A stretch of DNA of 64,000 nt from a virus (taxonomy: Duplodnaviria > Caudoviricetes). Made by a program: the position numbers and the translations under genes. Every line of letters begins with the position of its first letter. The stretch's first letter is position 1. Positions 3,605 to 64,000 of the stretch are shown in pieces. The notes below the pieces were generated by a model, which did no database searches, was not told where the DNA came from, and was given only the letters and a program-made list of their open reading frames with translations. The stretch spans positions 1 to 64,000 of IMG/VR virus record IMGVR_UViG_3300029288_000114. One strand, written 5' to 3'.

Positions 3605-5457
3605 AGCAGGAATTCTGTTTGCGGTTTGTATTTTATTCTCACGCTTGCGTAATCCAGTGAGTGTATTTTGTCGCTAGTTGACGTACCGTAAAACATGAAA
3701 AAGAATTTTTGGTATGCGCTAGGTATAGCCGTCACCATTCCGCCAAGATGTCCAGTAGATTTTCTTTGCATAAATGATGGCGAATATGGAAATATCAAAT
3801 CTGCATTTCCGTCGTATCTTATGCGCATATATTCGTTTGCCACAGATAGAGCGCCCTGGGTTATGGTGTAAACCTCATCACACGGTATCAAGTATAAGAA
3901 ATCTGCATAAACCGTCGCCGACCCGCTGTCTAGTTTAACCTGGAAGAATGGGACGTACACAACGCTACTGTATTCCGTGTATGTTTCTTCTGTTCGCGGC
4001 CATTCCATGGGCTGCGTGATAAATATTTCCCAGTTTGTTGTCAAGGATACTGTTGTTTCTTCTGTATATACACTGCCGAGAATATTGTATACGCTCCCTC
4101 TTATTTTACCGCTGTGTTCTGAGCTGCTTTTTAGGGCGCACACCAGCACGAATTTCCCGTATGCGCCAAATTGCTCACTAGATGTTGCCCACCCAGATAT
4201 TACGCTTGCCCATGATGTGTTCGCCGTAATACTGTCACTTGCGTCTTTTGTCCTACCAACGTCCGCGCCCCCGTCCCCATCGCCCCACCATTTATGAATT
4301 GGCAATGCTGATTTCCTGCCAATATGAATGAAACTTATTTTATTTGTTGTCGAAGGATATATATCTAACTGCAATGGGGATTCGACATCCCCAGATATAT
4401 CTATTACATCTATGTACGGGACGGCATCTTCGTCATAGTAGTTGTTTATTTTCCTTGAACTTGACCATCCAATCGGCGCCGAGCTTGCTCCTAGTTGCAA
4501 ATAGCACTTATCAACATAATATGATGTGACAAGGGATGCGTCTCCGGTTAGTCTCTCAATACGTATTGTCAGCGTTGTATCGCTCTCCCCAACTGTTCCA
4601 GAAACGTCAAGCCTGCGCCACGTATTGCCGAGCGAGTCTGTGGCGGTGACTGTTGCCGAATTATATTTTGCCGTATCCAGGCTCCCGCTGTCGTCTCCAA
4701 CCACGTCCAGTGTGATGTCGTCTGTTGCAGACGATCTGTATATCCATACGTATCCGACAAACGATTCCCCTTGATACGCAGAACAAGAAATGGCATCTGA
4801 ATATATTCCGTCTGTTCCAGAATTATCGGTCTGCACATGTTGCGAGTATGGTCTGACTAAATGGTATATGTTCCTTGATGTCGTTGGCGATCCGCTTTCA
4901 TTCCAACAATCTGCCAATCCGTCCCGGTCTGTGTCTTCGGCGAAATGCGGATTAAGAATAAAGTTTTCTAACGTTTGCTCCGCGCCGTATCCGGTGGGCT
5001 TGGTTGTTATCCCGATTTTCAATCCATCCCCAAACACCAATTCCTTTTGGCGTATATTATAAAAATCAAGGAATGCCGCTTTGTCATATTCAATATCTAT
5101 GACATCGTAATACGTTGCGTATGTAGCACCATCAAGTTTTATGTATAAGTACACTTTTCTTCCAGTGCCATTGATTTGATAATTGCGAGATTGCGCAACT
5201 AATCTGTTTAGTCCGGCCAAGATCGCAGTTGTGCCGTCGTTCGTCGTCCCGCGCGCGGCGAGCTTGAAAGACCACTCCTTATTCTCTTTGTTATGACGCA
5301 CTAGCATCGCGCCATCGGCGTAGTCGCTTTCGTGATACAGGTTCCTGTGTTTCGATATACCAAACTCGTTACCATTCGCCAGCATCTCGAAACCGTCTGT
5401 GTCATAATATAGATCAATGTCAGTTGTGCCATCGGTTATTTTGATTACATTTGTCAT
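3601..5457 (-). CDS. Distal tail (Dit-like) protein with an inserted carbohydrate-binding-like domain
   Basis: Directly after the tape measure. Internal NFILNPHFAEDTDRDGLADCW...YYVDKCYLQLG segment resembles CBM-type jelly-roll insertions. Confidence 0.6.
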   Translation of the reverse strand: MTNVIKITDGTTDIDLYYDTDGFEMLANGNEFGISKHRNLYHESDYADGAMLVRHNKENKEWSFKLAARGTTNDGTTAILAGLNRLVAQSRNYQINGTGRKVYLYIKLDGATYATYYDVIDIEYDKAAFLDFYNIRQKELVFGDGLKIGITTKPTGYGAEQTLENFILNPHFAEDTDRDGLADCWNESGSPTTSRNIYHLVRPYSQHVQTDNSGTDGIYSDAISCSAYQGESFVGYVWIYRSSATDDITLDVVGDDSGSLDTAKYNSATVTATDSLGNTWRRLDVSGTVGESDTTLTIRIERLTGDASLVTSYYVDKCYLQLGASSAPIGWSSSRKINNYYDEDAVPYIDVIDISGDVESPLQLDIYPSTTNKISFIHIGRKSALPIHKWWGDGDGGADVGRTKDASDSITANTSWASVISGWATSSEQFGAYGKFVLVCALKSSSEHSGKIRGSVYNILGSVYTEETTVSLTTNWEIFITQPMEWPRTEETYTEYSSVVYVPFFQVKLDSGSATVYADFLYLIPCDEVYTITQGALSVANEYMRIRYDGNADLIFPYSPSFMQRKSTGHLGGMVTAIPSAYQKFFFMFYGTSTSDKIHSLDYASVRIKYKPQTEFLL

Positions 5458-8400
5458 TATGCGGGCATCCTTTGCAATGTTGCCATATCACTAATGTCGC
5501 GGCTGATCTGCCGCGACATCTCGCGCCCGACTACCATGTTCGGCACCATCATTGTGCCTACAATGGGCGCATTTACCTCAACAACCACTGGCTGCTGCGA
5601 TCTCGCTGTATGCAATTGCCCCAATCCCATTGCCGCCTTATTGCCCAGCCCCGCAGCCATAGCGCCTATTGGGATATTATTCATCTTACTAAGACCTAGC
5701 GATAAGCCCTGCACTGCATATTCGCCGATTTCAGCAAACACTTTTGATGGAGACATGATACCCCAGGCATTTCTTAGCACTGTCTCAATTGATTTCGCAT
5801 AACCCCATGCGTATTTCTTGAACGCGGGTAGCGATTCAGACATGCCGTTTTGAATGCCGTACGTAATTGCTAACCCTACCGCGTAGAAAGTGTTGCTGCT
5901 TTGTGCAATAGCAAGCATTGCGTCTGCCATGTTTTGCATTACTGCGGATGCGGCGGCGTTTGCTCCGCCACCAGCCCCGGATATTGCATTTATGACCGCA
6001 ACCATCAGGTTAGACATTTCCGTAACGGCACGAGCCGTATTGTTTCTTATACCATTTGCCAACCCGGAGACTATATCCTCCCCTAATTCAATAAATCTTT
6101 TCGCCGGAGATTGTGCCCCGACTGAATCGCGTGCGGCGCGCAGCGTTGCTTCCCCAACCCCGGTTGCCGCTTCTTCTGCGATCACGGAGTTTTCGGTCAC
6201 GCCAAGTCCTAACCCCTCGGATATGCTCCGCCCGATTAGATTGGCGGCTTTCCCCAGGTCTATCTTCTCAAACATTTTGGTAAATCTGCCTATTTCTTTG
6301 CTAATGTCCCGTCCGGTTTTGTCAATGATCTTTGGAACGCCAGCCCATCCGCGATCCCATGCCTTCTGGAAATTATCGGGGAATATGTTGTCAAAGAAAT
6401 CGTTTATGGGTGTCAACCAATTCGTTGTTTGTGCCTCGATTTCTTGTTCTACCGGAGCAAATCCGGTAGTTATAGACTCCTGTGTTGTTAGCCCAGCCGC
6501 AAGAATTGTGCCCTGTAATATTGGCAATCCGGTATTGACGCCAAGAGACATATCGTCCATAATGGATGTGCCGAACTCTTGCATCTGTCCGGCCGGGAGT
6601 AGATATTGCAACGCCTCGTTTAGCGCGTCTGTGCCGGTTTCCGCGCCGTCAGTAATGGCTCGCGGAAGGCTCGCGCCCACATCTGTCCAGCCCTGGACAA
6701 AAGATGTATTCATCATAGCCGTGTCTGGCAACATTGAATTAACCACGCCCTGAACAGATTGGCTTATCCCGGCCGTGTTGTTTGAGACGCCAGCAATTGC
6801 CGCATTAATAAGGGTTTGCGACGATGCGGCGATCTCCGGTTGTCCGTCAAATAGTTCCTCTCGCGCCTTGCTTATGAATTCGCGCCCCAACGCTCTCCCC
6901 TCTTCTCCAACGGAAGACAGGTCAACATCAGGGAATATGTGTTCTATTAATTTTCCAAGCTCGCTTTGTTCAAATGCAATTCTTACACCCTCGAACATGT
7001 CTAATATAGATTCGAGAATGTTTAATCCAACACCGGCAACAATCTTTTTTAGCATCTCCCAGTTGTTAGCCCATACCGCCTTAACTTCTCCCCATGTTGT
7101 GCCGAATAACTTGGAGATTACTTCTGCCATTCCGACAAAGATCATTCCTATTGTGCTGAAAATACCTTGCATAATTCCGCGAAGTATTGTAATGATTCCG
7201 CCACCGATGTCGCCAGCGAGAACCTGCTTTATCCCCGCTCCGATTTGTATAATACCAGCAATAAGCTGCCCGAATCCGAGGAATATGCCATTGATTACCG
7301 CAAGAATAACATGCAGTATCGTGAAGAATATCCCCTTGGTTGCATCACTCTCTCCGGCTGCAGTCTTGAATAAATCTATCGCTTTTTCTATTTCTCCATA
7401 AGAATCCACCAGCGACTTTTTGAATTCTAACAAATCTGGCTTGAATTCTGATTTTATTTCTTCGCCGAATTCTGTCATCTTCTTAATAAAATTGTCGAAC
7501 TTCTCGCGCGCCACTGGCATTACTTCAGCAATGGTATCTTTAAGCGTAGTGAAAGATGCCCCGATCAGGGCTGCGTTCTCGGTGAACGAGTCTTTCATAT
7601 TCTTTAGCGGGTCTTCAAAGATTTCCTTTAGGCGCTCCTTGATGCCCGCAATCTTTTCTTCTAGCAAGCTCGTCCCGGCGAGAGGCATTTGAATCATAGA
7701 ATCCATCATGTCTTCGATGGGAGATTCCCCTCCGCCAGTTGGGGTTTTCCCCTTTGCCGATTTGCTAGATGAATCCTGAATAGCTTTGGCTAACAAGCGG
7801 AATAGTTCCAGTTGCTCTTGAATTAGCTCTTTCTGCATTTCGAGCTGCCGCAACTGAATCTCGTTGGCGTCCAGAGACCTCTTGGTTGTCGTGACTTTTT
7901 TAATTTGCGCTTTAATGGCTGCTGGATCGCGGTTGAGCACTTGCAGTTTGAACAGCTCGCTCTTTTGCGACTTGTATGAGCGCGTAAGTTCTTCGTTGAG
8001 GCGTTTGGCTTTATTGAAAGCGAACTCGATAGACTGAGATAGGAATTCAAGGTCTATCGTGGACAAGCCCTTTGCCCACTCCGCGATAGAGTCAACGCCC
8101 CACTGGAACAAATTGTCCTTGACATCTTGATCTAGCAGGGCGCGTAAGTCTTCCTTGATTTGCGGGAAAGCGTTGTGGATCGGGTAATTCATCATTCCCT
8201 TAACCCACTCACCCATTGCCGCTTCGCCCCACTTGTCAATGTATGGCGCAACTTTTGGCGGAGAACCTGGAGAAAGCCAATTAGTCAGCACGCTTGAAAT
8301 AAAGTTCATCGCTGTAGAGATGAACATTCCGAATCCGTTCATTATGCCGATGGCGAATTGCGAACCAACGTTCGCTCCCCATGTTAGCGCATTAACCGCC

Positions 8401-9917
8401 CAATCTGACGCAGATCGCCCCATTGTCATTTGCGCGGATTCCATTCCGTCTGCGGCATATTGTGCAGCCTGTCCGGTAAGTGTACCAGCTTGCACCATAG
8501 CTTGCATTGCTGGCGCGATCTTTGGCGGTATAGAAGCGAACTGACGCACAAAACCCTCAGACCAATCCTCGACCTTCGGGGTGGCCTCTGAGGTAAATTT
8601 GTTGATATACATTAAAGCAACGGTGGCGAATGGGGCAAACGCCGCCATCGCGCCATCGCGAATGTTGCGCAAGTTAGCGCCGAATTGGGCCATTTGTGTC
8701 TGCAAGAAGACGGTAAGATTGCCTGTCTTTAGCAGAATCTTTTCGCCTTCACGCATCGTGGCATTGAGCAACGCTTGGACACGCTCGGCTTGCGTTAAAG
8801 TATTTGCCGCTTTGCCAACTTCTTGCCCATATTTTGCATATTCTTCTGTGGCATTAATACTGATACCGGCATTGTCAATCCAGCGCGTAGAAAGTCTTCC
8901 AATACCTTTGGTAAGCGACTCTACAACATAGCCAACATCTTGCCCCGTGGCCAACGCAGCCGCTTGCGCAATGCCCATTAGTTTTGGCAAGTCTTTCCCA
9001 ACCTGATCGCCAATTAGGGCGAAGGCCATATTTGCGCCCTTGAGCATTGTGGTAATGTCGAGCGCCCCTCCAGTCATACGCTGCATCTCGGTTATCAGCT
9101 CGCGCGACGACGCTGTAAATCCCTCTGTGTTGTAGCGCGCCTGTTGCATAAAGTTCTCGAACTGTACGCGCAATGCTTCAATCGGGCCAGCCTGCTTGGT
9201 CAGATCGCTTATATTTCTGCCAAGTGATTTTAAGCCCTGGAATCCAATCATGCCAGCGATAATACGCCCCACATCGCCAAAGGCATTTTTGAGCATTTTA
9301 AGTGGGGCAAGAGGAATAGAGATGATAGCTTTTGCTATATTCTTGACTGCTTTTAGGGCTATACCACCGGCTGTCCCGGCCAACTTTGCAAACCATGACA
9401 CAATAGTTTTAATATTCGCCGCGCCATTAGCTCCCATTGCAACTAGCGCAGCGCGAATAGCTTGCACTCTCGAAAGGCTCTGCGCATCCGGTACTCCGCC
9501 CGGCGCAGAGACGCCCTTCTTGCGCCCCTCGCGTGCGGCTTTCATTTCTTCGGTGCGCGCTTGTGTTGCTGCGGCTCGAACGGCGGCGGCGTCTTTGATT
9601 TTCTGTGCGGCGGCTTCCGCTGATGCGGCGGCTGTTTCTCGCGATGCGGCAGTCTCTACCTGCGCGGCGGATTCGGCCTCCCGTGCCTTTGCGCTTGCCA
9701 GAGACATCTCTTTCCTAATCTCTTGAGTCTTTACGGCTGCGGCGGCCTTAGCTTCCTCAGCCGCACGCTTGCTTGCCGCCGAGAATATATCCGCGATGGC
9801 ACGCGCAGATACACCAGAATCTTTTATCGCCGACGTAATGGCGTTGATCTGCTTAATGATGTCGTCGCCCGACATCACGAACTTTATGTGTATCCTTGCT
9901 GCTACATCATTTGCCAT
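5457..9917 (-). CDS. Tape measure protein
   Basis: 1486 aa, Ala/Gly-rich and helical, with SPSKVF/SPAKRF motifs, located after the tail chaperones. Confidence 0.92.
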   Translation of the reverse strand: MANDVAARIHIKFVMSGDDIIKQINAITSAIKDSGVSARAIADIFSAASKRAAEEAKAAAAVKTQEIRKEMSLASAKAREAESAAQVETAASRETAAASAEAAAQKIKDAAAVRAAATQARTEEMKAAREGRKKGVSAPGGVPDAQSLSRVQAIRAALVAMGANGAANIKTIVSWFAKLAGTAGGIALKAVKNIAKAIISIPLAPLKMLKNAFGDVGRIIAGMIGFQGLKSLGRNISDLTKQAGPIEALRVQFENFMQQARYNTEGFTASSRELITEMQRMTGGALDITTMLKGANMAFALIGDQVGKDLPKLMGIAQAAALATGQDVGYVVESLTKGIGRLSTRWIDNAGISINATEEYAKYGQEVGKAANTLTQAERVQALLNATMREGEKILLKTGNLTVFLQTQMAQFGANLRNIRDGAMAAFAPFATVALMYINKFTSEATPKVEDWSEGFVRQFASIPPKIAPAMQAMVQAGTLTGQAAQYAADGMESAQMTMGRSASDWAVNALTWGANVGSQFAIGIMNGFGMFISTAMNFISSVLTNWLSPGSPPKVAPYIDKWGEAAMGEWVKGMMNYPIHNAFPQIKEDLRALLDQDVKDNLFQWGVDSIAEWAKGLSTIDLEFLSQSIEFAFNKAKRLNEELTRSYKSQKSELFKLQVLNRDPAAIKAQIKKVTTTKRSLDANEIQLRQLEMQKELIQEQLELFRLLAKAIQDSSSKSAKGKTPTGGGESPIEDMMDSMIQMPLAGTSLLEEKIAGIKERLKEIFEDPLKNMKDSFTENAALIGASFTTLKDTIAEVMPVAREKFDNFIKKMTEFGEEIKSEFKPDLLEFKKSLVDSYGEIEKAIDLFKTAAGESDATKGIFFTILHVILAVINGIFLGFGQLIAGIIQIGAGIKQVLAGDIGGGIITILRGIMQGIFSTIGMIFVGMAEVISKLFGTTWGEVKAVWANNWEMLKKIVAGVGLNILESILDMFEGVRIAFEQSELGKLIEHIFPDVDLSSVGEEGRALGREFISKAREELFDGQPEIAASSQTLINAAIAGVSNNTAGISQSVQGVVNSMLPDTAMMNTSFVQGWTDVGASLPRAITDGAETGTDALNEALQYLLPAGQMQEFGTSIMDDMSLGVNTGLPILQGTILAAGLTTQESITTGFAPVEQEIEAQTTNWLTPINDFFDNIFPDNFQKAWDRGWAGVPKIIDKTGRDISKEIGRFTKMFEKIDLGKAANLIGRSISEGLGLGVTENSVIAEEAATGVGEATLRAARDSVGAQSPAKRFIELGEDIVSGLANGIRNNTARAVTEMSNLMVAVINAISGAGGGANAAASAVMQNMADAMLAIAQSSNTFYAVGLAITYGIQNGMSESLPAFKKYAWGYAKSIETVLRNAWGIMSPSKVFAEIGEYAVQGLSLGLSKMNNIPIGAMAAGLGNKAAMGLGQLHTARSQQPVVVEVNAPIVGTMMVPNMVVGREMSRQISRDISDMATLQRMPA

Positions 9918-12271: not shown

Positions 12272-13354
12272 TTAGAGGAACGATTGCGCCACAACTTTTG
12301 CTCTTTCGATATATGAATGTGGTTTAACTAATTTGCGCAATTCTTCCCCGATCTCGCGGCGCTCTTTCTCGCGGGGCAACCAGTAGTGGATCAAATCGTT
12401 AAGTTGTTCGGGGGTGGTGAATGACGGGACTAGATCGCCGAATACCGCTTTGAGTTCTGGTCTGTATTCGCTAATCATAAACCCACCACACGCCGCAATC
12501 TCGTATACGCGCGGCGAGATTGATTCTGCTTCAGGGACGCGCATCTTCCCATCATAGTCTATCGAGACGCGGTTTAGGTTAATCGAAATCTTTGCGCCGT
12601 TATATAGGATCGCGGCTTGCTCGTTAGCGATCTCGGTGTCTTTGTAGTACGGCGCAAGTGGATGCTCGTCTGGAATCTGGTAGTAACCATAGAACTCGAA
12701 GTCAATACCAGACCAATCTACACCTTCTAGCATTCTGACACGCTCGGGGAATCCGCTACCTACAAAGATAACGTCGTGGCGCATATTCTCTGGTACAGCT
12801 ACAGGGAAATGCACGTTGGTATTGTATGCGCCTGGAAGATATGGCAGTTCCAACATGCGTGCCGAGACGAGATCGTTAGCAAACATTGTGTGTGTATATT
12901 CGCGTAATACGCCAACCGATTTATCCTGGTACGGGCACTCGGTACTAATCGTTGTGGTATGAAAACCCATCCGCCTAAACCATTCCCATCCCGCCTTGTG
13001 AATGTTTGTGCCGTCAATAATTACTAACTCGTCAGGCTCGGTTTCCATAATCTTCATCACTAGATTAAGCGATGCTGATAGCACTACGTCCTTTGCGTCG
13101 AATTGCCAGTTCTTGTTGCCCTGTACGATCCCAAAGAATCTCGCGTACTCAGACCACTGCCGAAACAGGGCGTGGTACGGGACTTCCTGGACGCTGTATC
13201 CAAGCATCCGAAATGCGTGCGCGTATCCTTTCCAGACATCATAGTTTGATGTCGGCTGTGCGCCGCTAACTAAAGCTATTACTTTTTGTCGCATAAGTTT
13301 ATCCTTTCTTGTGCGCTTGACATATTTATCGCTTACCCCAAACCCTCTAGCCAT
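12272..13354 (-). CDS. CgeB-like GT-B glycosyltransferase
   Basis: DVIFVGS..PER, YNGAKISINL, SPRVYEIAACGGF, HSYIERAK motifs. Confidence 0.88.
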   Translation of the reverse strand: MARGFGVSDKYVKRTRKDKLMRQKVIALVSGAQPTSNYDVWKGYAHAFRMLGYSVQEVPYHALFRQWSEYARFFGIVQGNKNWQFDAKDVVLSASLNLVMKIMETEPDELVIIDGTNIHKAGWEWFRRMGFHTTTISTECPYQDKSVGVLREYTHTMFANDLVSARMLELPYLPGAYNTNVHFPVAVPENMRHDVIFVGSGFPERVRMLEGVDWSGIDFEFYGYYQIPDEHPLAPYYKDTEIANEQAAILYNGAKISINLNRVSIDYDGKMRVPEAESISPRVYEIAACGGFMISEYRPELKAVFGDLVPSFTTPEQLNDLIHYWLPREKERREIGEELRKLVKPHSYIERAKVVAQSFL

Positions 13355-24175: not shown

Positions 24176-24681
24176 TTCAACCTCGCTAGTATGTCATCCC
24201 AATCTACAACGCGCATTCCTCTAACTGCACGATGCGTATTGAACGGTTGAGAAAATAGGTATCCGTCTGTCTTTCCAGACAAATCGTTTATCGTTTCTGG
24301 AATAGAGTCTATGAAAATGTCTAGCCCCATTTGTTCGACACGTAACGATTTATCTGAAACGTGAATCGCAGATTTTGCTGTAAATCCATTATCCCTAAGC
24401 CACTTGCATGTTACGTTTGCGGCGTATGATGGGCGCGATGTAATAATAAAGACAGAATGAGATTTGAATAATACGTCTAATCCGTTAGCCGCCCCACGCA
24501 TAACCGGCATGTGCAAATATGTGGTGTCGCGTGTATACCAATCGCTCCATACTGCATCTGGTATTGTAGCAAACATTTCTTCCAGGCTGTATGCACTGTC
24601 CAGGTCTGGACAGCCAAACGAATTAACAGCCGCAAGATATATGTCGGCAAGCACGCCGTCTATTTCCAGCCCGATTCTCAC
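24172..24681 (-). CDS. HAD-family 5'(3')-deoxyribonucleotidase-like (NT5C) protein
   Basis: IGLEIDGVLAD, IITSRP, K, IFIDS, PFN motifs. Confidence 0.8.
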   Translation of the reverse strand: MRIGLEIDGVLADIYLAAVNSFGCPDLDSAYSLEEMFATIPDAVWSDWYTRDTTYLHMPVMRGAANGLDVLFKSHSVFIITSRPSYAANVTCKWLRDNGFTAKSAIHVSDKSLRVEQMGLDIFIDSIPETINDLSGKTDGYLFSQPFNTHRAVRGMRVVDWDDILARLK

Positions 24682-26786
24682 GCGACCCGCCCTCTATATT
24701 TGTATTGAATGAAACAACGGTCGTTGTGCTTGCACATTCTGTCGCCAATCTGCGGCTGCAAGTTCTCCGGTTTAGTCCACCCAAGATCACTCAATGCGCT
24801 ACAATCTGGACAAACACGATTATCCTGTACGGATACGTTACGCGCCAGGAGATTGTCGTCCCCGGTAAGAATACCGCTTTTTAGATCAACAGTCAGTGTG
24901 TTGCGCGGGAACAGTGTGTCGAATGTTTTCTTCGCCTTGACTGGCGTGGCTTTGTTGGCGAAGATTTTGTAGATTGCGCTGGCGTATGTGCCGGCCCTTG
25001 CCGCGAACAATCCGGTTGCACCAGAGATTGCCAGCGCAAATAGCTCTGCCGCCATATCGTCTTCTTTAGCCTGGCGTGCCACTTCGAGAATCTTGTCGCG
25101 GATTGCCGGAGTCAATACACTGGTCATATATCCGTATTGCAACATAATCTCGTCCAGGATTGCCATCATCTGCGGAGCGTTCGGCGCATCCCCAACCACG
25201 TCGCGCCACATTTTAATCGCGTCATCCATCAGCGATTCTCGCATTGCATCAACGAGATTGTTCGTATATATGGCAACGAGAGATTCCCACTCTTTTTCGT
25301 TCTTCGCGGTAAGCTCTTTGGACAGGGGCTTTAATGTGCGCAGATAAATACTAGTTAGTTTGCGCGCCGTTGCGTCTGTCATTGCGTCTGCTGATTGTGC
25401 GGTTGGCAAATCGGCGAACTCAGACATCTTTTTTTCTGTCACCGCTTCATCCGTTTCCGCCTCGCCTTCTTCAACTTCTTGAGACGCTGGCATAGATACA
25501 TCTTCTGTAGTGTCTTGCTGTGGCTGTGCGTCTGGAGTAGTCACGCCCTGCTGCGCCGGTAGATTTGGCTTTAACAGCAAACCCGGTTTCTCGATCTGAT
25601 CCAGCCCAATCGTGCGGCGTACTTGATTCTCGGTTTCGAGATCGTATGTTACCGTACCGGCGTTAAACAGCCTGGACACCATTTCTGAGAAGTCTTGCAT
25701 ATCAACTTTGGCAAGTTTATCAAAGAACACAGTCGGAGTGCCACTACCTTCGGGGAATGAGTTTAAGTCAAACAGGCGTTTAACGGCTTGCCGGTTGATA
25801 GTTGCCGCAATGCGCGATAAGAATGTATTGAGCGCGGCCAGGTACATCGCGGATTTGTCCTTAATCATGGCGAACGATCCGCCATCACCGGCTCCAAGCA
25901 TAATGAAGTCCATCAGCATTACGCGCGCAAAGTCTTTTTGGTGCCGCGCAATAACTTCGCCGAGTTCAATCGCTGGCCCGTGTGCTGGCATCTCGTATTT
26001 GAAAGTCCACCCGCTCGGTAACGTCATTCCCATATCTTCGCCGATCTTGACGTTGCGTACAATATTCTTTGCCACCGTAACGGGTGATGTAGCAGATGTA
26101 TCGGTGAAATCAACATTGTCAGGCAGCATCATAACCGGCGTGCCCGACATCCGCTCACACACAATCGCTTCGAGGATTTGCAGGTTCTTTACATAAAACC
26201 AGGACGTGTAACTTCCTTCGTATACGGACACGCCCTCAAAGTTGTTCTTGCCGCTGCCGCTAGTGGTGAAGTGTAGCATTTTCTCGGCGGGGATGAATAC
26301 GGATGTGCCATCCCAGTCTTGCCACATCCCGGCCATATCGCCATCTTTTATTTCCCATCTATCTAGTGTTATGGGGTGGCGCGGCGACCACTTTTTCCAA
26401 TAGATGCGCTTGTCATCGCGCCGCTCATAGACAACTTCTTGTGCAAACCATCCATATACCAGGAAATGCGATATGTCAGACATAACGTCCTCGAACGGTT
26501 TTTGCATTGTTTGCAATGCACGTTCGAGAAATTCGGCTTTCTCTTTGTCTTCCGGCAGATTGCCCGCTGGCCTGACGTGAACCTTCGCGCCTTGCATAAA
26601 GATACTCGTAGTCTGCAGCATCGCTGCGCCCACAGCATCAAGGCGCGACATTTCGTCGAACACTTCAACCTTACGAGCGTTAGTGCGAAGATCGCTAATC
26701 CAGGACTCGGTAATATTGCCGTTGTACTGATTTAGCCCTGAAACACCAAGCTCTTGTGTGATTTTAGTTGGCTGTTTATCTGCCAT
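24678..26786 (-). CDS. Portal protein (Mu gp29/DUF935-like) fused to a MuF-like head morphogenesis domain
   Basis: YGWFAQEVVY, FIPAEK.LHF, GGSFAM motifs. C-terminal DNRVCPDC...IGDRMCKHNDRC. Confidence 0.85.
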   Translation of the reverse strand: MADKQPTKITQELGVSGLNQYNGNITESWISDLRTNARKVEVFDEMSRLDAVGAAMLQTTSIFMQGAKVHVRPAGNLPEDKEKAEFLERALQTMQKPFEDVMSDISHFLVYGWFAQEVVYERRDDKRIYWKKWSPRHPITLDRWEIKDGDMAGMWQDWDGTSVFIPAEKMLHFTTSGSGKNNFEGVSVYEGSYTSWFYVKNLQILEAIVCERMSGTPVMMLPDNVDFTDTSATSPVTVAKNIVRNVKIGEDMGMTLPSGWTFKYEMPAHGPAIELGEVIARHQKDFARVMLMDFIMLGAGDGGSFAMIKDKSAMYLAALNTFLSRIAATINRQAVKRLFDLNSFPEGSGTPTVFFDKLAKVDMQDFSEMVSRLFNAGTVTYDLETENQVRRTIGLDQIEKPGLLLKPNLPAQQGVTTPDAQPQQDTTEDVSMPASQEVEEGEAETDEAVTEKKMSEFADLPTAQSADAMTDATARKLTSIYLRTLKPLSKELTAKNEKEWESLVAIYTNNLVDAMRESLMDDAIKMWRDVVGDAPNAPQMMAILDEIMLQYGYMTSVLTPAIRDKILEVARQAKEDDMAAELFALAISGATGLFAARAGTYASAIYKIFANKATPVKAKKTFDTLFPRNTLTVDLKSGILTGDDNLLARNVSVQDNRVCPDCSALSDLGWTKPENLQPQIGDRMCKHNDRCFIQYKYRGRVA

Positions 26787-26848
26787 GTTCCCGCCTTAAA
26801 TGCGAATGTGGCGCACGAATAGGTGCGCCTAACAATTGCTCCCCCTTG

Positions 26849-27109
26849 CTATTCTGCGTCAAAAACGTCGTGGATGAGCGAAGACCCGCCGCCGATAAAG
26901 ACAGCCGTAAGGATGCGCCCGGCGACGTCCGGCAACATTTCGCCCAGGATATTGACACCAGAAACCCACCCGATCACTCCGCCCGTGGCCAGCGCAACAT
27001 ATACAATCCACCATAAGTCTGCTTCAGGGAACTTTTGCCTAATCGGGGCGACGATGTAATCTACAAGCGCCTTATTGATAACCGCCAAAAACAGTGCTAC
27101 ACTAAGCAT
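26849..27109 (-). CDS. Putative holin
   Basis: 86 aa, 2-3 TM helices, ILTAVFIGGGSSLIHD C-terminal motif. Confidence 0.65.
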   Translation of the reverse strand: MLSVALFLAVINKALVDYIVAPIRQKFPEADLWWIVYVALATGGVIGWVSGVNILGEMLPDVAGRILTAVFIGGGSSLIHDVFDAE

Positions 27110-27142
27110 TTTTCACCTCGCTTTAGTTTGGTATCGCTAACT

Positions 27143-27177
27143 ATTCTACATCTCGAAAGTAATGAGCCGAACCTTAA
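27143..27177 (-). promoter_or_regulatory. Putative late promoter TTAAGGTT-N21-TAGAAT (holin-portal operon)
   Basis: Shared motif and spacing. Confidence 0.65.
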
Positions 27178-27201
27178 ACGTTGCATTCGTCGTCGTTGTG
27201 T

Positions 27202-27243
27202 GTGATATTTATCATTTGCGTAACTACGTAATTGTGATAGAAT
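27202..27243 (+). promoter_or_regulatory. Promoter with CRP/FNR-like box GTGATATTTATCAT 22 bp upstream of an extended -10 (TAGAAT)
   Basis: Same geometry as five minus-strand promoters in the accessory arm. Confidence 0.65.
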
Positions 27244-27267
27244 ACAGACAATTCTTGATAAATTCGT

Positions 27268-27539
27268 GTTAGACGGATTAGGAGGCCGTCACATTATGAG
27301 CGAAGAATATATTTTGAATTTTGGGTATTGCCCAGATTGTGGGACACAGTTTGTTTTTGACCGTGAAAATACAGCGTGGACAGAGGAACAGGATTTAGTT
27401 GTTGTTCCGCTGGTTTGTCCGAATTGTCGCTACTCAGGCGGTGCGCACATCCGTCTAACCCCAGTTGCAGCGGACGCGGAACACGAATAGGCGACGGGCG
27501 AGCGGGAAGCGCCGCGCCGCTGAACATTGGCCGTTAGGC
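27268..27539 (+). mobile_element. Integron gene cassette with attC site (attC 27453-27539)
   Basis: 5' core GTTAGAC, RBS, ORF, then R'' GTCTAAC (exact complement of the core), TTGCAGCGGACGCGG...CCGCGCCGCTGAA stem with extrahelical bases, and R' GTTAGGC. Confidence 0.8.
27296..27490 (+). CDS. Small zinc-ribbon protein (cassette cargo)
   Basis: CPDC...CPNC, AGGAGG RBS, ORF ends inside attC. Confidence 0.7.
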   Translation: MSEEYILNFGYCPDCGTQFVFDRENTAWTEEQDLVVVPLVCPNCRYSGGAHIRLTPVAADAEHE

Positions 27540-27662
27540 GGCAAAGGAGACAATCGGTGAACAGTGATATTGCAAAATTCGTACTTGAACACAGCAACAT
27601 CGAAAGCGACCTAGCCTCTATAGGATTTTGGGCGGGGACATCGTTGAAGTAAAGAGGGAGAC

Positions 27663-27947
27663 ATGGCGAACGATTCAAGTGCTGCAGGAGTGATGTGGTA
27701 CGACGGCGACTCCAAGAAATCGCTTGTTGACAAGCTGCCAGCGGCTATCGCGGCATATAAGCGCCACAGCGGATTAGAGCCTACGCATGTGGAGTTGAAT
27801 ACGAATGACTATGCAGAGGTGCCGGATGGATCGGTGGTTTGTGGTCTGGTTATTCAGCGGGGGGAGTATACTTCGCCAGGATATTGTTATGTATTTGGAG
27901 GTGACCGGAATGGGCGCAAGGTGGGAACGCCGCGAGAAGAAGCGTAA
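27663..27947 (+). CDS. Hypothetical protein
   Basis: GAGGGAG RBS, 94 aa. Confidence 0.65.
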   Translation: MANDSSAAGVMWYDGDSKKSLVDKLPAAIAAYKRHSGLEPTHVELNTNDYAEVPDGSVVCGLVIQRGEYTSPGYCYVFGGDRNGRKVGTPREEA

Positions 27948-28028
27948 CAAGAGACGCAACGGGATGCGCGTTAGCGGAAAAAGCGTATTCGTTATATTAT
28001 CAGAGATCGGGAAAAGGGGAAATAAAAA

Positions 28029-28208
28029 GTGGAAAAAGTAATTAAAGCTATTGTTATACTTGTTTCTGTAGTCGTGATGCATTTTGCATATCGTACGCAC
28101 GATTTAGATTGCGTTACAAAGAACGCCTGGATGTATCGTTTATCTTATGCAGTCATAATTGTTATGGGCATCCTCACAATTGCGGTGGATGTTTTGCGCC
28201 TGTTCTAG
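28029..28208 (+). CDS. 59 aa two-TM membrane protein (below the ORF-track cut-off)
   Basis: GTG after a GGGGA RBS, translates as MEKVIKAIVILVSVVVMHFAY...YAVIIVMGILTIAVDVLRLF. Confidence 0.5.
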   Translation: MEKVIKAIVILVSVVVMHFAYRTHDLDCVTKNAWMYRLSYAVIIVMGILTIAVDVLRLF

Positions 28209-29875
28209 TACGCCCGCCATTTAGTGTCTCCGACAGAGAACCCGCGCCGCTTTAACTCGCGTACCGTATCAGATCGTGGCACAATAATAATCTGCGGGAC
28301 GTTGCTGTAGTGCCGAGTCGGGCCACCCACAAAAGCATAGCGCAAGGCGGAAGCAAAATCTTCGCCGTCCTTACCCGGGGTATCTCTATCAAATGTGCCA
28401 TCAGGCAGCTTCTTGCACTTAAAGCGGTGCATCAACGCATTGTCCAGACCTGGACAGCGTTTGGGATCGACGAACAGGCTACGATCTTGCGAGAAGTCGC
28501 GGAACGCATCACGCAATCGTCCAAGTCCGTAAGCAACACTGGCGACCTCTTTGTTAATCGTGCGGCAATTTAGGTCTTCTGGCCAGTCCTTGATTAGGTC
28601 TTCGCTGGCTTTCTCCGCCCAAAAGGTAGTGATGTGTAGCCCAAAATCGTCCAGGACTTTTTGTTTGATATTGCGCGCCGCCTCAATGAGTTTACTTGGA
28701 GTGCTGCTGTCGTCAGCCCATTCCGCTATTGCCCACCGAATCTTGTTTCCGTTACTGGCAGTATATGGCGCTTGTGCCATAACCACGATACGCCCACGAC
28801 CGCGCTGATCTATACCGGCACAGCAAGTCCAATTGTTCAAGTCTGCACCTTGCGGCGGGAACGGCAACCGACTACCCTCGTCGTACTGCGGGAACACTAA
28901 GCCCTGCTCTTTATCAGACAACAACAAATTCTGCAGCGCCCAAGACTCAGGATCGACAGCGTTCTTGAATTTGCCGAGCGCATCGCGGAATGGGTAATGC
29001 CCGCCGGCTTTTGCCCCTCGCCCCTTACACAACTCTTCAAAATTTCCAGTATACGGGTTCGTCCAATAATGGAATGGGCAAGCGCCACAATCAGTCGGGT
29101 ATTCCTGTCCGCAGCTTTCCATCGTGTCGAAGATGTCGAATTGATAGGTGGCAATGCCGCGATCCCTAGCCGTGTTAATGAGGGACTGCATCGTCCCGTT
29201 ACTATGGTATTGCGATGACGCCATCAGGGTCGTGGCGCTATGCCCGCCTTTTGACATGGGCATTTCCATCGCCGTAGCCAGGGTATTTGTGTCTATATGG
29301 TCTAGCTCGTCAATTACTAGAACTTGCGGATGCGGGCCAGATACAGCGCGCTCTGAACCGCCCGTCCTGATCTCTAACTTAGAGCCATTCGTTAAAATAG
29401 TTTTGCTAACTAGGGGATCGTCTGCCAGCATGTCGGAGAACAACGCGGAACGCATCAATCCATCCTCGCCGTCTTTCGCCTTGCTGCCAGCGTAATATGC
29501 GTATCCGTCGCGTGCTTGCCCCTCGCTGCCGCCAACGTGGACTACGAATATACCGTCCTTGAATAGCGTGGTGGCGACCTCGAAGATGGAGTATGCGCGA
29601 GTCTTGCCGCCGCCGCGATTGCCTCTGGCCAATAGGGTTTGCTCGCGCTCGAAGAACGCATCGGCGATGAATTGGAATGGGGACTTGTGTTCTTCGTGCG
29701 TGGCATAACGCGCCATCTTAAAGCCGAGCACGTCGCGTATCCACTCGTACAGATCGTCGTCGTTTCGTGGGCGCTGTGATGCTTTTAGTTTTAGGCGGCT
29801 AGTTTTCTCCGTCTGTGCGTCTTGCAGTAATTGCAAAAGCATCTGCGGAGGCAAGCTCTGAAAAGTCTGCGTCAA
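28205..29875 (-). CDS. terL: Terminase large subunit
   Basis: Walker A GNRGGGKT, Walker B VLVIDELD, RNase H-like AGID...ALRY. Confidence 0.85.
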   Translation of the reverse strand: MTQTFQSLPPQMLLQLLQDAQTEKTSRLKLKASQRPRNDDDLYEWIRDVLGFKMARYATHEEHKSPFQFIADAFFEREQTLLARGNRGGGKTRAYSIFEVATTLFKDGIFVVHVGGSEGQARDGYAYYAGSKAKDGEDGLMRSALFSDMLADDPLVSKTILTNGSKLEIRTGGSERAVSGPHPQVLVIDELDHIDTNTLATAMEMPMSKGGHSATTLMASSQYHSNGTMQSLINTARDRGIATYQFDIFDTMESCGQEYPTDCGACPFHYWTNPYTGNFEELCKGRGAKAGGHYPFRDALGKFKNAVDPESWALQNLLLSDKEQGLVFPQYDEGSRLPFPPQGADLNNWTCCAGIDQRGRGRIVVMAQAPYTASNGNKIRWAIAEWADDSSTPSKLIEAARNIKQKVLDDFGLHITTFWAEKASEDLIKDWPEDLNCRTINKEVASVAYGLGRLRDAFRDFSQDRSLFVDPKRCPGLDNALMHRFKCKKLPDGTFDRDTPGKDGEDFASALRYAFVGGPTRHYSNVPQIIIVPRSDTVRELKRRGFSVGDTKWRAY

Positions 29876-62369: not shown

Positions 62370-63217
62370 TATTCAACAAATTATGCATGTACGAATGTTT
62401 CTGCAATTTCGAGCATAACGCCCCATTTTACCCTATAAAACAGTAGTTAAAAAGATGCTTTTCTCCCACCGGGAAAATTTTAGACATGACTTATTATTTG
62501 CTTGAGCAATCTTAAGAATTGCAATCCCCATTGCAAAAAAGTACAAATTGCAATAGTCGCGGCTATGCTCTCACAGCTAAAATGCAATAGAATCTTGCAA
62601 AAGTGCGCAATTTATAGGCATTGCTACACTGGCAGAATTGCAAAAACAAAAAGTTTGGCCATCTTCTTTAATTGCGTGGGAGAGAAAAGTCGAGTATACT
62701 GTGTTTGTACGTGGGCAAGGCAAGCAAGGCAAGCCAAGCCAGCACTTTTAACCAGACTAGTGACATTAAAGATTGTACGCGGGAAGTCACTACCGCCGAC
62801 CCGCTACCCAAGTGCGGCAGCACTTTACCAGTTTAGTCGGAGTATAGGCAAGGGCGCAGGAAACATTTATAGGGCGCAATTTTAGAAGGGTATGATCAAA
62901 ACCACGGGCCCGGCGACGTGCGGAATACTTCACCTAACCTGCCTATTAATAATCTGATTAAACTTGAAACTAGTAAAGTGCGACGTTAACAATTTTATCC
63001 CTATAGTATACCATCCCCCCGAATTCACCTTCCAGCTATCAAATAGAATGGGCGTGATAATAGACATGGGATATGCTACTATAGGATACTCAAACTATCG
63101 CGCAAGCGATAGACTCGAATTATAAACTTGTAAAATAATTTTATAGTTTGAGTGTATCACTTGCTCAATGGCAAGTGTAAAATTTTAATCACTATTCACA
63201 GTATATGGAGGTTTGAA

Positions 63218-63790
63218 ATGGCTACGTTAAAATATGATTCACGCAAAAAAGTTTATTTTCTGGTCAAGGATGTTACGGAGTCTGGAAAAACTACAAAAAA
63301 GCCTGTTGAGGTTCCGGTAGAATCTAATTCTGTTCATGCGCTTCTAGTAGTCGGTAATAGCATGGACAAAGCAACAATCCAAGCGTACCAGCTGTATACA
63401 TCCTTGTCTGAAGAGGATCGCCGGGACTACAAAGCTATCCTTGAGGATATGTTTTCCCGCATGACTGTCAATGTTTGGTCATGGTGTATCGATGACGCCA
63501 ACATGCGCTATGTCTATGAAAACATGGGGCAGCTGGCCGTGCAAGCATATCATACCCTTCCGCAAGAAAAATGGGCGGAATTCTTACCCATTGCCAAACA
63601 TGAGTGCGAAGTCAACATGAGAGGCGCCTCCGCGCGGTTTATTCGCGCCGTGAACAAGGAAAAAGCCGCGGTCAAGAAAAGCACACCGGCACCGGCGCGT
63701 ACTATTGAAGTCATCATGGCAGAACTTGCCGCAGCAGAAAAAGTTGTGGAGGCACTCCGCAAAGAACTGGAGACGGCCAAGGCCAAGTAG
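63218..63790 (+). CDS. Hypothetical protein, first gene of the rightward arm
   Basis: GGAGG RBS, Lys/Ala-rich coiled-coil C-terminus. Confidence 0.75.
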   Translation: MATLKYDSRKKVYFLVKDVTESGKTTKKPVEVPVESNSVHALLVVGNSMDKATIQAYQLYTSLSEEDRRDYKAILEDMFSRMTVNVWSWCIDDANMRYVYENMGQLAVQAYHTLPQEKWAEFLPIAKHECEVNMRGASARFIRAVNKEKAAVKKSTPAPARTIEVIMAELAAAEKVVEALRKELETAKAK

Positions 63791-63812
63791 TACAATCGCA
63801 CAAGGTTATAGA

Positions 63813-63843
63813 ATGGGGAAGGGTTATAGTGACCCTTCCCCAT
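63813..63843 (+). terminator. Strong hairpin after the gene (terminator or processing site)
   Basis: 14-bp stem ATGGGGAAGGGTTA/TGACCCTTCCCCAT. U-tract is weak. Confidence 0.55.
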
Positions 63844-64000
63844 GTCAATTTATAGGTTACCGCATGGATAGTCGTGCTATTCATGCGGTAGTTTATAACT
63901 TGAAAGTCCAGTGTGTAAAATGATTTTACACTGGCAAGGAATGACATATGAGCGAATTGGATACTTGGTTCCCTAGAGAGAATGGAATTGATGCAATCGA

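Follow-up and report, generated by a model that had tools for sequence, protein, structure and literature searches.

Here we describe a small gene and the attC site that overlaps its end in the genome of an uncultured phage (Duplodnaviria; Caudoviricetes) of landfill and groundwater origin. The phage is represented by the IMG/VR virus record IMGVR_UViG_3300029288_000114, which is 97 kb long with an estimated completeness of 88 %, and the window analysed is its first 64 kb (64,000 nucleotides; positions are those of the window). On the + strand, a promoter-like site, a core site, a ribosome-binding site (RBS), an open reading frame of 64 amino acids (aa; ORF64) and an attC follow one another, with a second frame of 31 codons (ORF31) behind them. 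The short operon that these two frames head is flanked on both sides by genes of the - strand, the portal and holin-like genes to the left and terL to the right. We consider it probable that 27269-27533 is a bona fide integron-type cassette standing alone in a phage genome, with neither an integrase nor a second attC. Such a unit corresponds to a SALIN, a single attC lacking an integrase, which Loot et al. published in bacteria.

The attC carries the full set of paired boxes and unpaired bases of such sites. Its outer boxes R'' and R', of the form RYYYAAC and GTTRRRY, pair at six of seven positions and are one of eight such pairs spaced 50-150 bp apart in the 97 kb. The L boxes pair at all six positions (GTT-G-CAG with CTGAAC), leaving one extrahelical base in the middle of L''. 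Further in, 3 bp beyond L'', there is a second extrahelical base, a bulged A (T on the bottom strand), and behind it a 5-bp stem, for a stem extension of 8 bp in all. Folded as DNA, the bottom strand (GCCTAAC GGCCAAT GTTCAG CGGCGCGG, the loop, CCGCG-T-CCG CTG-C-AAC TGGG GTTAGAC) pairs from end to end in its minimum free energy (MFE) structure, with a single unpaired T and a single unpaired C on the '' arm. Only one other RYYYAAC and GTTRRRY pair in the genome, at 12322-12404, has its R boxes paired in the MFE fold; its structure is weak and branched (-8.3 kcal/mol), has no attC model match and is probably due to chance.

For comparison, real attCs were drawn from phage records named in Qi, Rajabal, Ghaly, Tetu and Gillings (2023, Front Microbiol, PMC9892861; hereafter Qi et al.): class 1 arrays in P1 phage (L016), a V. 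anguillarum chromosomal-integron fragment (L011), TJE1 (L012), Shewanella M16-3 (L014) and MW202573 (L015). A strict-consensus detector missed most of these sites and its criteria were relaxed. In a rule-based parse, the attCs of aadA1, aadA2, psp and qacH, TJE1_attC2 and the Shewanella M16-3 sites have one common signature, and the window element has the same one: an L box paired 6/6 with a bulge in the middle of L'', 3 bp, a bulge that is A on the top and T on the bottom strand, and a further stem. Searched on both strands of about 350 kb of phage DNA, with at least 6 of 7 R-box pairs required, this signature was found nowhere else.

Covariance models give the same answer. They were home-built, with the window sequence excluded from training, and their expectation (E) values are rough. 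A first model (R1), built from four aadA-type attCs, was too narrow and missed the window element as well as real attCs such as TJE1_attC2. A second (R2), built from 10 diverse attCs with manually assigned structure, matches 27453-27539 on the + strand over the full model at 25.8 bits (E 0.005) and places it among the real attCs outside the training set. The third (R3) was trained on 17 real attCs recovered by R2 in integron-bearing records. Run over the whole window with filters off, R3 scores the element at 31.4 bits (E 1.3e-4), full-length and on the + strand only, the next match reaching 12.5 bits. Held-out real attCs score in the same range under R3 (dfrA 31.6, estX 30.0, V. anguillarum sites 27-40 bits), and four attCs that adjoin an IntI-like gene in virus Rctr41k reach 17-21 bits; elsewhere in the genome, or in the loci of relatives, nothing exceeds 13.4 bits. 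By every test run 27453-27539 is an attC, and it is alone in the genome. That an integrase would recombine it is a prediction from the sequence.

The surroundings of the attC have the layout of a complete gene cassette. Every motif listed in an earlier, sequence-only reading of this DNA is in place (Table 1), and the two checks which that reading had proposed for the attC, a covariance-model match and a bottom strand that folds with extrahelical bases, both gave the expected result. The predicted unit opens with a TTRRRY that is the complement of its own R''; a single ORF without a promoter of its own follows, and the G of R' closes the unit. The complementarity between core site and R'' turned out to be longer than had been claimed: GTTAGACGGAT (27268-78) and ATCCGTCTAAC (27449-59) form a perfect 11-bp inverted repeat, which stands just upstream of the RBS and has a chance probability of about 7e-5 within 300 bp. 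The repeat fits cassette logic, because the circularised cassette's own R' would be exactly such a sequence. On the right, the attC is followed by GGCAAAGGAG and then by ORF31, which starts with GTG. With its GTT at the cut and its CGGC at +6 to +9, the right flank TTAGGCGGC fits the attG consensus GWT...CRGM, which was derived for IntI1 in E. coli.

The unit comprises one coding sequence (CDS) and one attC, with no other att site or integrase nearby, which is the composition of a SALIN. A cluster of attCs lacking an integrase (CALIN) has at least two clustered attCs, and the 97-kb genome has one R3 match. The lack of intI seen earlier in the window holds for the whole 97-kb record, complete to 88 %, in which profile searches found neither IntI (TIGR02249) nor a tyrosine recombinase (PF00589); attI-like repeats were not recognised either.

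Table 1. The predicted cassette, its parts and the neighbouring genes, in window coordinates
Feature	Position	Strand	Remarks
Predicted cassette, 265 bp	27269-27533	+	TTAGAC, 5' untranslated region with RBS, ORF64, attC through the G of R'; delimited by attC model match and G/TT rule (slash, point of exchange)
attC, 87 bp	27453-27539	+	Boxes, fold, covariance models
Left attC arm	R'' 27453-27459; L'' 27464-27470	+	R'' GTCTAAC; spacer CCCA; L'' GTT-G-CAG (GTTGCAG)
attC stem and loop		+	CGGACGCGG / CCGCGCCG; stem of the '' arm CGG-A-CGCGG; loop 32 nt
Right attC arm	L' 27520-27525; R' 27533-27539	+	L' CTGAAC; spacer ATTGGCC; R' GTTAGGC
5' core site	27268-27278	+	G/TTAGAC plus 4 bases (GTTAGAC 27268-27274); left arm of the 11-bp inverted repeat with the R'' side
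RBS	27280-27285	+	AGGAGG, ahead of ORF64
ORF64, 64 aa	27296-27490	+	Treble-clef/zinc-ribbon, CPDC...CPNC; ATG 27296, stop TAG 27488-27490
Promoter-like site	27216-27243	+	TTGCGT-N16-TAGAAT, TG-extended -10; points to the cassette, diverges from the holin-like gene; putative function
ORF31, 31 codons	27557-27652	+	GTG start, RBS AAGGAG; chimeric remnant
Short operon	ORF64 27296-27490, ORF31 27557-27652, ORF94 27663-27947, ORF59 28029-28208	+	
ORF94 and ORF59	27663-27947, 28029-28208	+	Remainder of the variable slot, overlapping the 3' end of terL
Holin-like 86-aa membrane protein	26849-27109	-	Left border of the slot; kept by relatives; 52 % identity to the L001 protein at the equivalent position
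Portal gene	24678-26786	-	PF06074 Portal_Mu; left of the cassette operon
terL	28205-29875	-	

Logan contigs of four public runs, aligned to 26000-29000, bear on the mobility of the unit. The same phage recurs in a groundwater run of a different study with its locus unchanged (contigs across 26948-27660, zero differences), and in a second landfill run 27027-27312 is unchanged. A 329-nt contig from a lagoon metagenome (X5) carries 27266-27544 with 1 mismatch, between flanks of 23 and 27 bases that are absent from the window; after the same GTTAGGCGGCAA it continues into a different gene. A groundwater contig (X2) at 38x depth, against about 6x for the phage, has 27449-27526 behind 184 nt of unrelated sequence. 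It differs from the window by 10 substitutions and 3 indels, all of them in the loop (27484-27509), while both arms are identical, and it ends ...CGACGGTTAGGC (...GTTAGGC), which gives an L'-R' spacer of 6 nt. In another contig, 27447-27485 stands immediately after the TAG of a different ORF. In these last two copies the shared sequence begins at 27449 and 27447, where the extended attC stem also starts.

The cargo of the predicted cassette is a small zinc ribbon. ORF64 matches PF13451 (zf_Tbcl) at 28.8 bits (cut-off 24) and phrog_21057 weakly. It has no PHROG function and no informative Pfam match beyond the zinc-finger fold, and in the Atlas it lies among small, unnamed proteins. Lar restriction-alleviation proteins resemble it at a template modelling (TM) score of 0.56, which is a lead only, and the role in defence or counter-defence that had been suggested for the cargo finds no functional match in this protein. 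The final 12 codons of ORF64 lie inside the attC, R'' also being within the frame. The sole homologue among 5.8 billion proteins, P0002, is 91 % identical and is encoded on a 17.5-kb contig of the Joint Genome Institute (JGI); it has a different N-terminus and its reading frame continues through the attC loop. This read-through fits what would be a fast-changing variable terminal structure between conserved arms, and the stop of ORF64 inside the loop may be recent. Past that TAG, the frame of ORF64 is open for 10 further codons (ATGEREAPRR; region 27488-27523), which resemble the tail of P0002, ALGEQETPRR.

Ahead of the cassette, the promoter-like site ends 24 bp upstream of the core site, and its pattern has a single match in the window where 0.04 would be expected by chance. 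The promoter of the sequence-only reading is thereby borne out in its position and its uniqueness, but not by a generic sigma-70 scan, which did not call the site; its -35 matches at only 3 of 6 positions.

The cassette lies in a variable slot between the holin-like gene and terL (27110-28208). A TerL-based search provided four usable relatives (L001/L005, L006, L002 and L003) and, among 185,579 species genomes, no prophage. The slot is hypervariable and far more diverged than its borders. In L002 and L003, whose TerL is 92-93 % identical, ORF74, ORF90, ORF67, ORF95 and ORF91 replace ORF64 and ORF31. These two relatives differ from each other by one swapped gene, ORF90 being replaced in L002, and ORF94 has 38 % identity to ORF95 of L003, while TerL stands at 92 %. 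A 64 % relative (L001) has a single 133-aa gene in the slot, and a 55 % relative (L006) has yet another arrangement. R3 detects no attC in the relatives' slots, and the relatives' contigs end before the position of the promoter. Neither ORF94 and ORF59 nor the other slot proteins of this phage and its relatives matched any family, family profile searches with the holin-like protein gave no match, and slot DNA had no match among INPHARED phages. By composition the cassette does not stand out as foreign (GC 0.525 versus 0.495), the attC alone being unusually GC-rich.

The sequence-only reading had taken ORF31 for the stump of a second cassette. It has no family match, no attC of its own and no GCCTAAC R'' partner downstream. 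Its last seven codons (27631-27652) come from a resident gene, the 3' end of one like ORF67, and the origin of 27545-27630 is unassigned. Variant contigs (X2, X3) join at 27631, and before the joint they read in frame ...NHIWYVIADN, resembling ORF67 of L003. Because an ORF67-like frame runs into its end, ORF31 is a chimeric remnant of the resident gene and not a demonstrable second cassette.

Other repeated or junction sequences were considered along with the slot. The gene junctions of L002 and L003 (GGTCGTTAGGCCGCCAAG, GCCTAACCCC..., CTGAAC-N6-GCTAGAC) were rejected as decayed attCs, with a best local alignment of 21 against a shuffle mean of 18 +/- 2.5 and no model match. A 19-nt repeat, GCATCAAGC[C/G]CGACCGCGC, occurs at L003:3810-3828 and L003:3250-3268 (- strand), where it forms part of the 3' tails of two small ORFs that are unrelated and use it in different frames, and L002 has a related tail, ...GACCGCGCCAGGCGCGCC...; the repeat may be a DNA-level element at gene ends and is not an attC by model. 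In the phage itself, a 17-bp palindrome, TGTAAAATGATTTTACA, recurs with its variants a dozen or more times at about 63100-75100 of the record (from 63129-64000 of the window onward), and the 14-mer GTAAAATGATTTTA occurs 13 times in this region. The palindrome was discarded as a relative of the attC, the two sequences being unrelated.

Several observations weigh against a cassette placed here by an integron integrase. The models behind the attC call are home-built with rough E-values, and under its default filters R3 passed over the site, probably on account of its 32-nt loop insertion. Departures from the norm are the spacers, of 4 and 7 nt where 5 and 5-6 are usual, and the extrahelical base of L'', a C on the bottom strand where G is usual; a 4-nt R''-L'' spacer and the identical L'' bulge base are also found in the Rctr41k attCs. 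There is no complete integron, with intI, attI and the cassette promoter Pc next to an array. The host integron that had been proposed as the source did not come to light: neither the 185,579 species genomes nor IMG/VR gave a copy of the attC family in scans with two patterns, which detect exact matches only and are not evidence of absence. The metagenome evidence consists of short contigs (273-329 nt). The lagoon unit ends 2-3 nt to the left and 11 nt to the right of the predicted G/TT crossovers and may have moved by ordinary recombination, not by IntI. Compared with the X2 and X3 variants, the change in the phage is a replacement extending to 27631 and not a clean insertion. In a further check that the sequence-only reading had proposed, the relatives do have differently filled slots, and no empty site was found. 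The cassette may have been put in place by IntI, or may have arrived or moved between phages by ordinary recombination; the imprecise lagoon edges and the replacement-type difference leave room for the latter.

One alternative explanation does without IntI altogether: the element would belong to a non-integron repeat family that resembles attCs, such as a repetitive extragenic palindromic (REP) or miniature inverted-repeat transposable element (MITE)-like sequence or a phage module-boundary element, and related phages would shuffle it and its adjoining gene through recombination, homologous or illegitimate. In favour of this, the slot is hypervariable also between phages whose TerL is 92-93 % identical and its other swaps come without attCs, the unrelated palindrome acts as a module boundary elsewhere in the same genome, the lagoon unit does not break exactly at G/TT, the record has no integrase, and the high depth of the arm-bearing contig shows only that it is multi-copy or abundant. 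A repeat family of this kind would, however, have to reproduce a full-length attC score like that of held-out real attCs, and only in the orientation expected from the gene; both extrahelical bases at their canonical offsets; RYYYAAC and GTTRRRY ends; and an R'' that matches the 5' end of the cassette over 11 bp. The element also follows the ends of ORFs in 3 of 3 contexts and is single-copy in the genome, unlike the boundary element. We regard this explanation as unlikely. Very improbable, in our judgement, is an ordinary phage operon in which the end of ORF64 overlaps a hairpin that arose by chance or works at the RNA level (attenuator, mRNA stabiliser or weak terminator), its likeness to attCs being a coincidence selected by the sheer size of the scan. 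Taken alone, energy and end motifs are indeed unconvincing: the hairpin energy is ordinary for the local GC-rich composition (z -0.6 on the bottom strand, -1.0 on the top), and 3 % of 150 block-wise dinucleotide shuffles of the genome yield an R''/R' pair that closes an equally stable hairpin. Over about 250,000 windows of 64 kb, tens of matches would be expected by chance at an E of about 1e-4 per window, and the loop region is translated as protein in P0002. It is the specific geometry together with the model score that puts the attC beyond chance, and independent features coincide: the score, the positions of the bulges, the 11-bp repeat and the return of the element after other genes, its arms conserved and its loop variable. 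An intrinsic terminator is ruled out, there being no T-run after the stem.

The sequence-only reading went further than a single cassette and saw the phage as a vector that captures host integron cassettes at an expressed landing site. In the widest form of this claim, the promoter-proximal GTT site would be a dedicated, reusable acceptor (attI and Pc-like) at which the lineage repeatedly captures and expresses them. In its favour are the cassette 24 bp behind a strong-looking promoter, different small genes in the slot of every relative, several slot ORFs with G(T/C)TAG(A/G)C about 20 nt before the start codon, and a different gene in the lagoon copy after the same downstream sequence. Against it stand a genome with one attC and relatives' slots with none, junction similarity that is not significant, and the absence of any integrase, attI-like repeat or empty site from what was searched; the relatives' contigs, by stopping before the promoter, would hide any reuse of the site. 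We hold this wider claim to be quite improbable. There is likewise a slim chance that in this phage lineage the promoter-proximal GTT site, with lysis genes on one side and packaging genes on the other, permanently accepts integron cassettes and expresses them, and that the phages exchange cassettes of one attC family with a host integron that is abundant and as yet unsequenced, to which the 38x groundwater copy would belong. If so, the carriage of integron cassettes by phages in anoxic subsurface communities would be regular traffic and no accident.

For the lone cassette that we favour, the following course is proposed, in which IntI as the agent, the direction of transfer and expression are what we infer. 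The cassette would have arisen in a bacterial or mobile-element integron whose attCs were of one family. In a host expressing IntI, it may then have been inserted into a GTT site of the phage by attC x attG recombination, or the unit may have been swapped between related phages. It would now head an operon of small genes between the lysis and packaging genes, and ORF64 would be transcribed from phage signals because the cassette adjoins the promoter-like site at the head of this operon. The bottom strand of the attC is predicted to fold into an R-box, spacer and L-box hairpin with two extrahelical bases of the kind recognised by IntI, and on account of this fold the cassette should still lend itself to excision, or donation, in any host that expresses a compatible integrase. 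Excision of the IntI type would leave the empty site ...TTCGTG/TTAGGCGGC... and the circular junction ...GCCG/TTAGACGG....

The closest known counterparts are the SALINs of Loot et al., who showed that IntI also places cassettes outside integrons, in attG sites with a GWT, and that a cassette is expressed if its new position is close to a promoter. As in SALINs, there is one CDS with one attC, no intI, attI or other attC nearby and a resident promoter adjoining, and the target here has the GTT at the cut and CGGC at +6 to +9. The carrier here is a phage genome and not a bacterial chromosome, and the insertion is deduced, whereas theirs was observed. In phages, including virulent ones, attCs, CALINs and complete integrons have been described and tested by Qi et al. 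(PMC9892861), who list three complete integrons and one In0 and discuss GTTRRRY boundary motifs and mosaicism as a route of entry. With the phage CALINs of that study our case shares integron sites and small cargo genes in phages without an integron integrase, and TJE1_attC2, which IntI1 recombines, has the L-box and bulge signature of the window attC. It differs in that Qi et al. required at least two attCs per phage, a rule below which a lone cassette falls, and in that the present phage is an uncultured one from landfill and groundwater, known from sequence, with its cassette between lysis and packaging genes.

Comparison with the class 1 aadA-type attCs, or 59-base elements (aadA7, aadA1, aadA2), places the site structurally. 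In Table S3 of Qi et al. (PMC9892861), the attCaadA7 bottom strand reads ATCTAAC GCTTGA ATTAAG CCGCGCCGC GAAG GCGGCG-T-CGG CTT-G-AAT GAATT GTTAGAC. The order of the parts is the same, from R'' through a spacer, L'' (3 bp, bulge, 3 bp), 3 bp, the bulged T of the bottom strand, stem, loop, L' and a spacer to R' GTTRRRY, and R'' GTCTAAC is that of aadA1 and aadA2. The window attC is longer (87 bp with a 32-nt loop versus 60 bp), has spacers of 4 and 7 versus 5 and 6 nt and has C in place of the G of these sites as the extrahelical base of L''; outside the boxes there is no sequence similarity, and the cargo is not a resistance gene. The cassettes associated with promoter early stem-loop (PeSL) elements in the hyperplastic regions of T4-type phages are alike in that closely related phages exchange small accessory genes at short structured DNA elements beside promoters. 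PeSL-type elements are many-copy, phage-specific and promoter-linked, whereas the element here is single-copy, lies 3' of its gene and matches an attC model.

A further virus came up alongside these comparisons. Virus Rctr41k (L019; KX853513.1; locus at 4680-8813), from a denitrifying anaerobic methane oxidation (DAMO) enrichment, encodes an IntI-like recombinase that is 40 % identical to the V. anguillarum integron integrase. Downstream of this gene and on the same strand are at least four attC matches of about 128 nt (the R3 matches given above). The locus looks like an integron with its array on the integrase's own strand, and Rctr41k is not among the records named in the available text of Qi et al. 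(PMC9892861).

The cassette described here adds a new, well-supported example to a known kind of system, attCs in phages having first been reported in 2023; the phenomenon is already published, and no new question is opened by it. What it offers is a clean natural case, in which a complete cassette in the canonical gene-then-attC orientation sits in an uncultured phage without an integrase of its own and has metagenome copies elsewhere. It indicates that single-attC cases, which standard pipelines drop, can be real. It also supports the view, put forward by Qi et al. 2023 and by Loot et al., that genes enter phage genomes, and pass from one to another, through integron integrases or through recombination at the sites of these enzymes.

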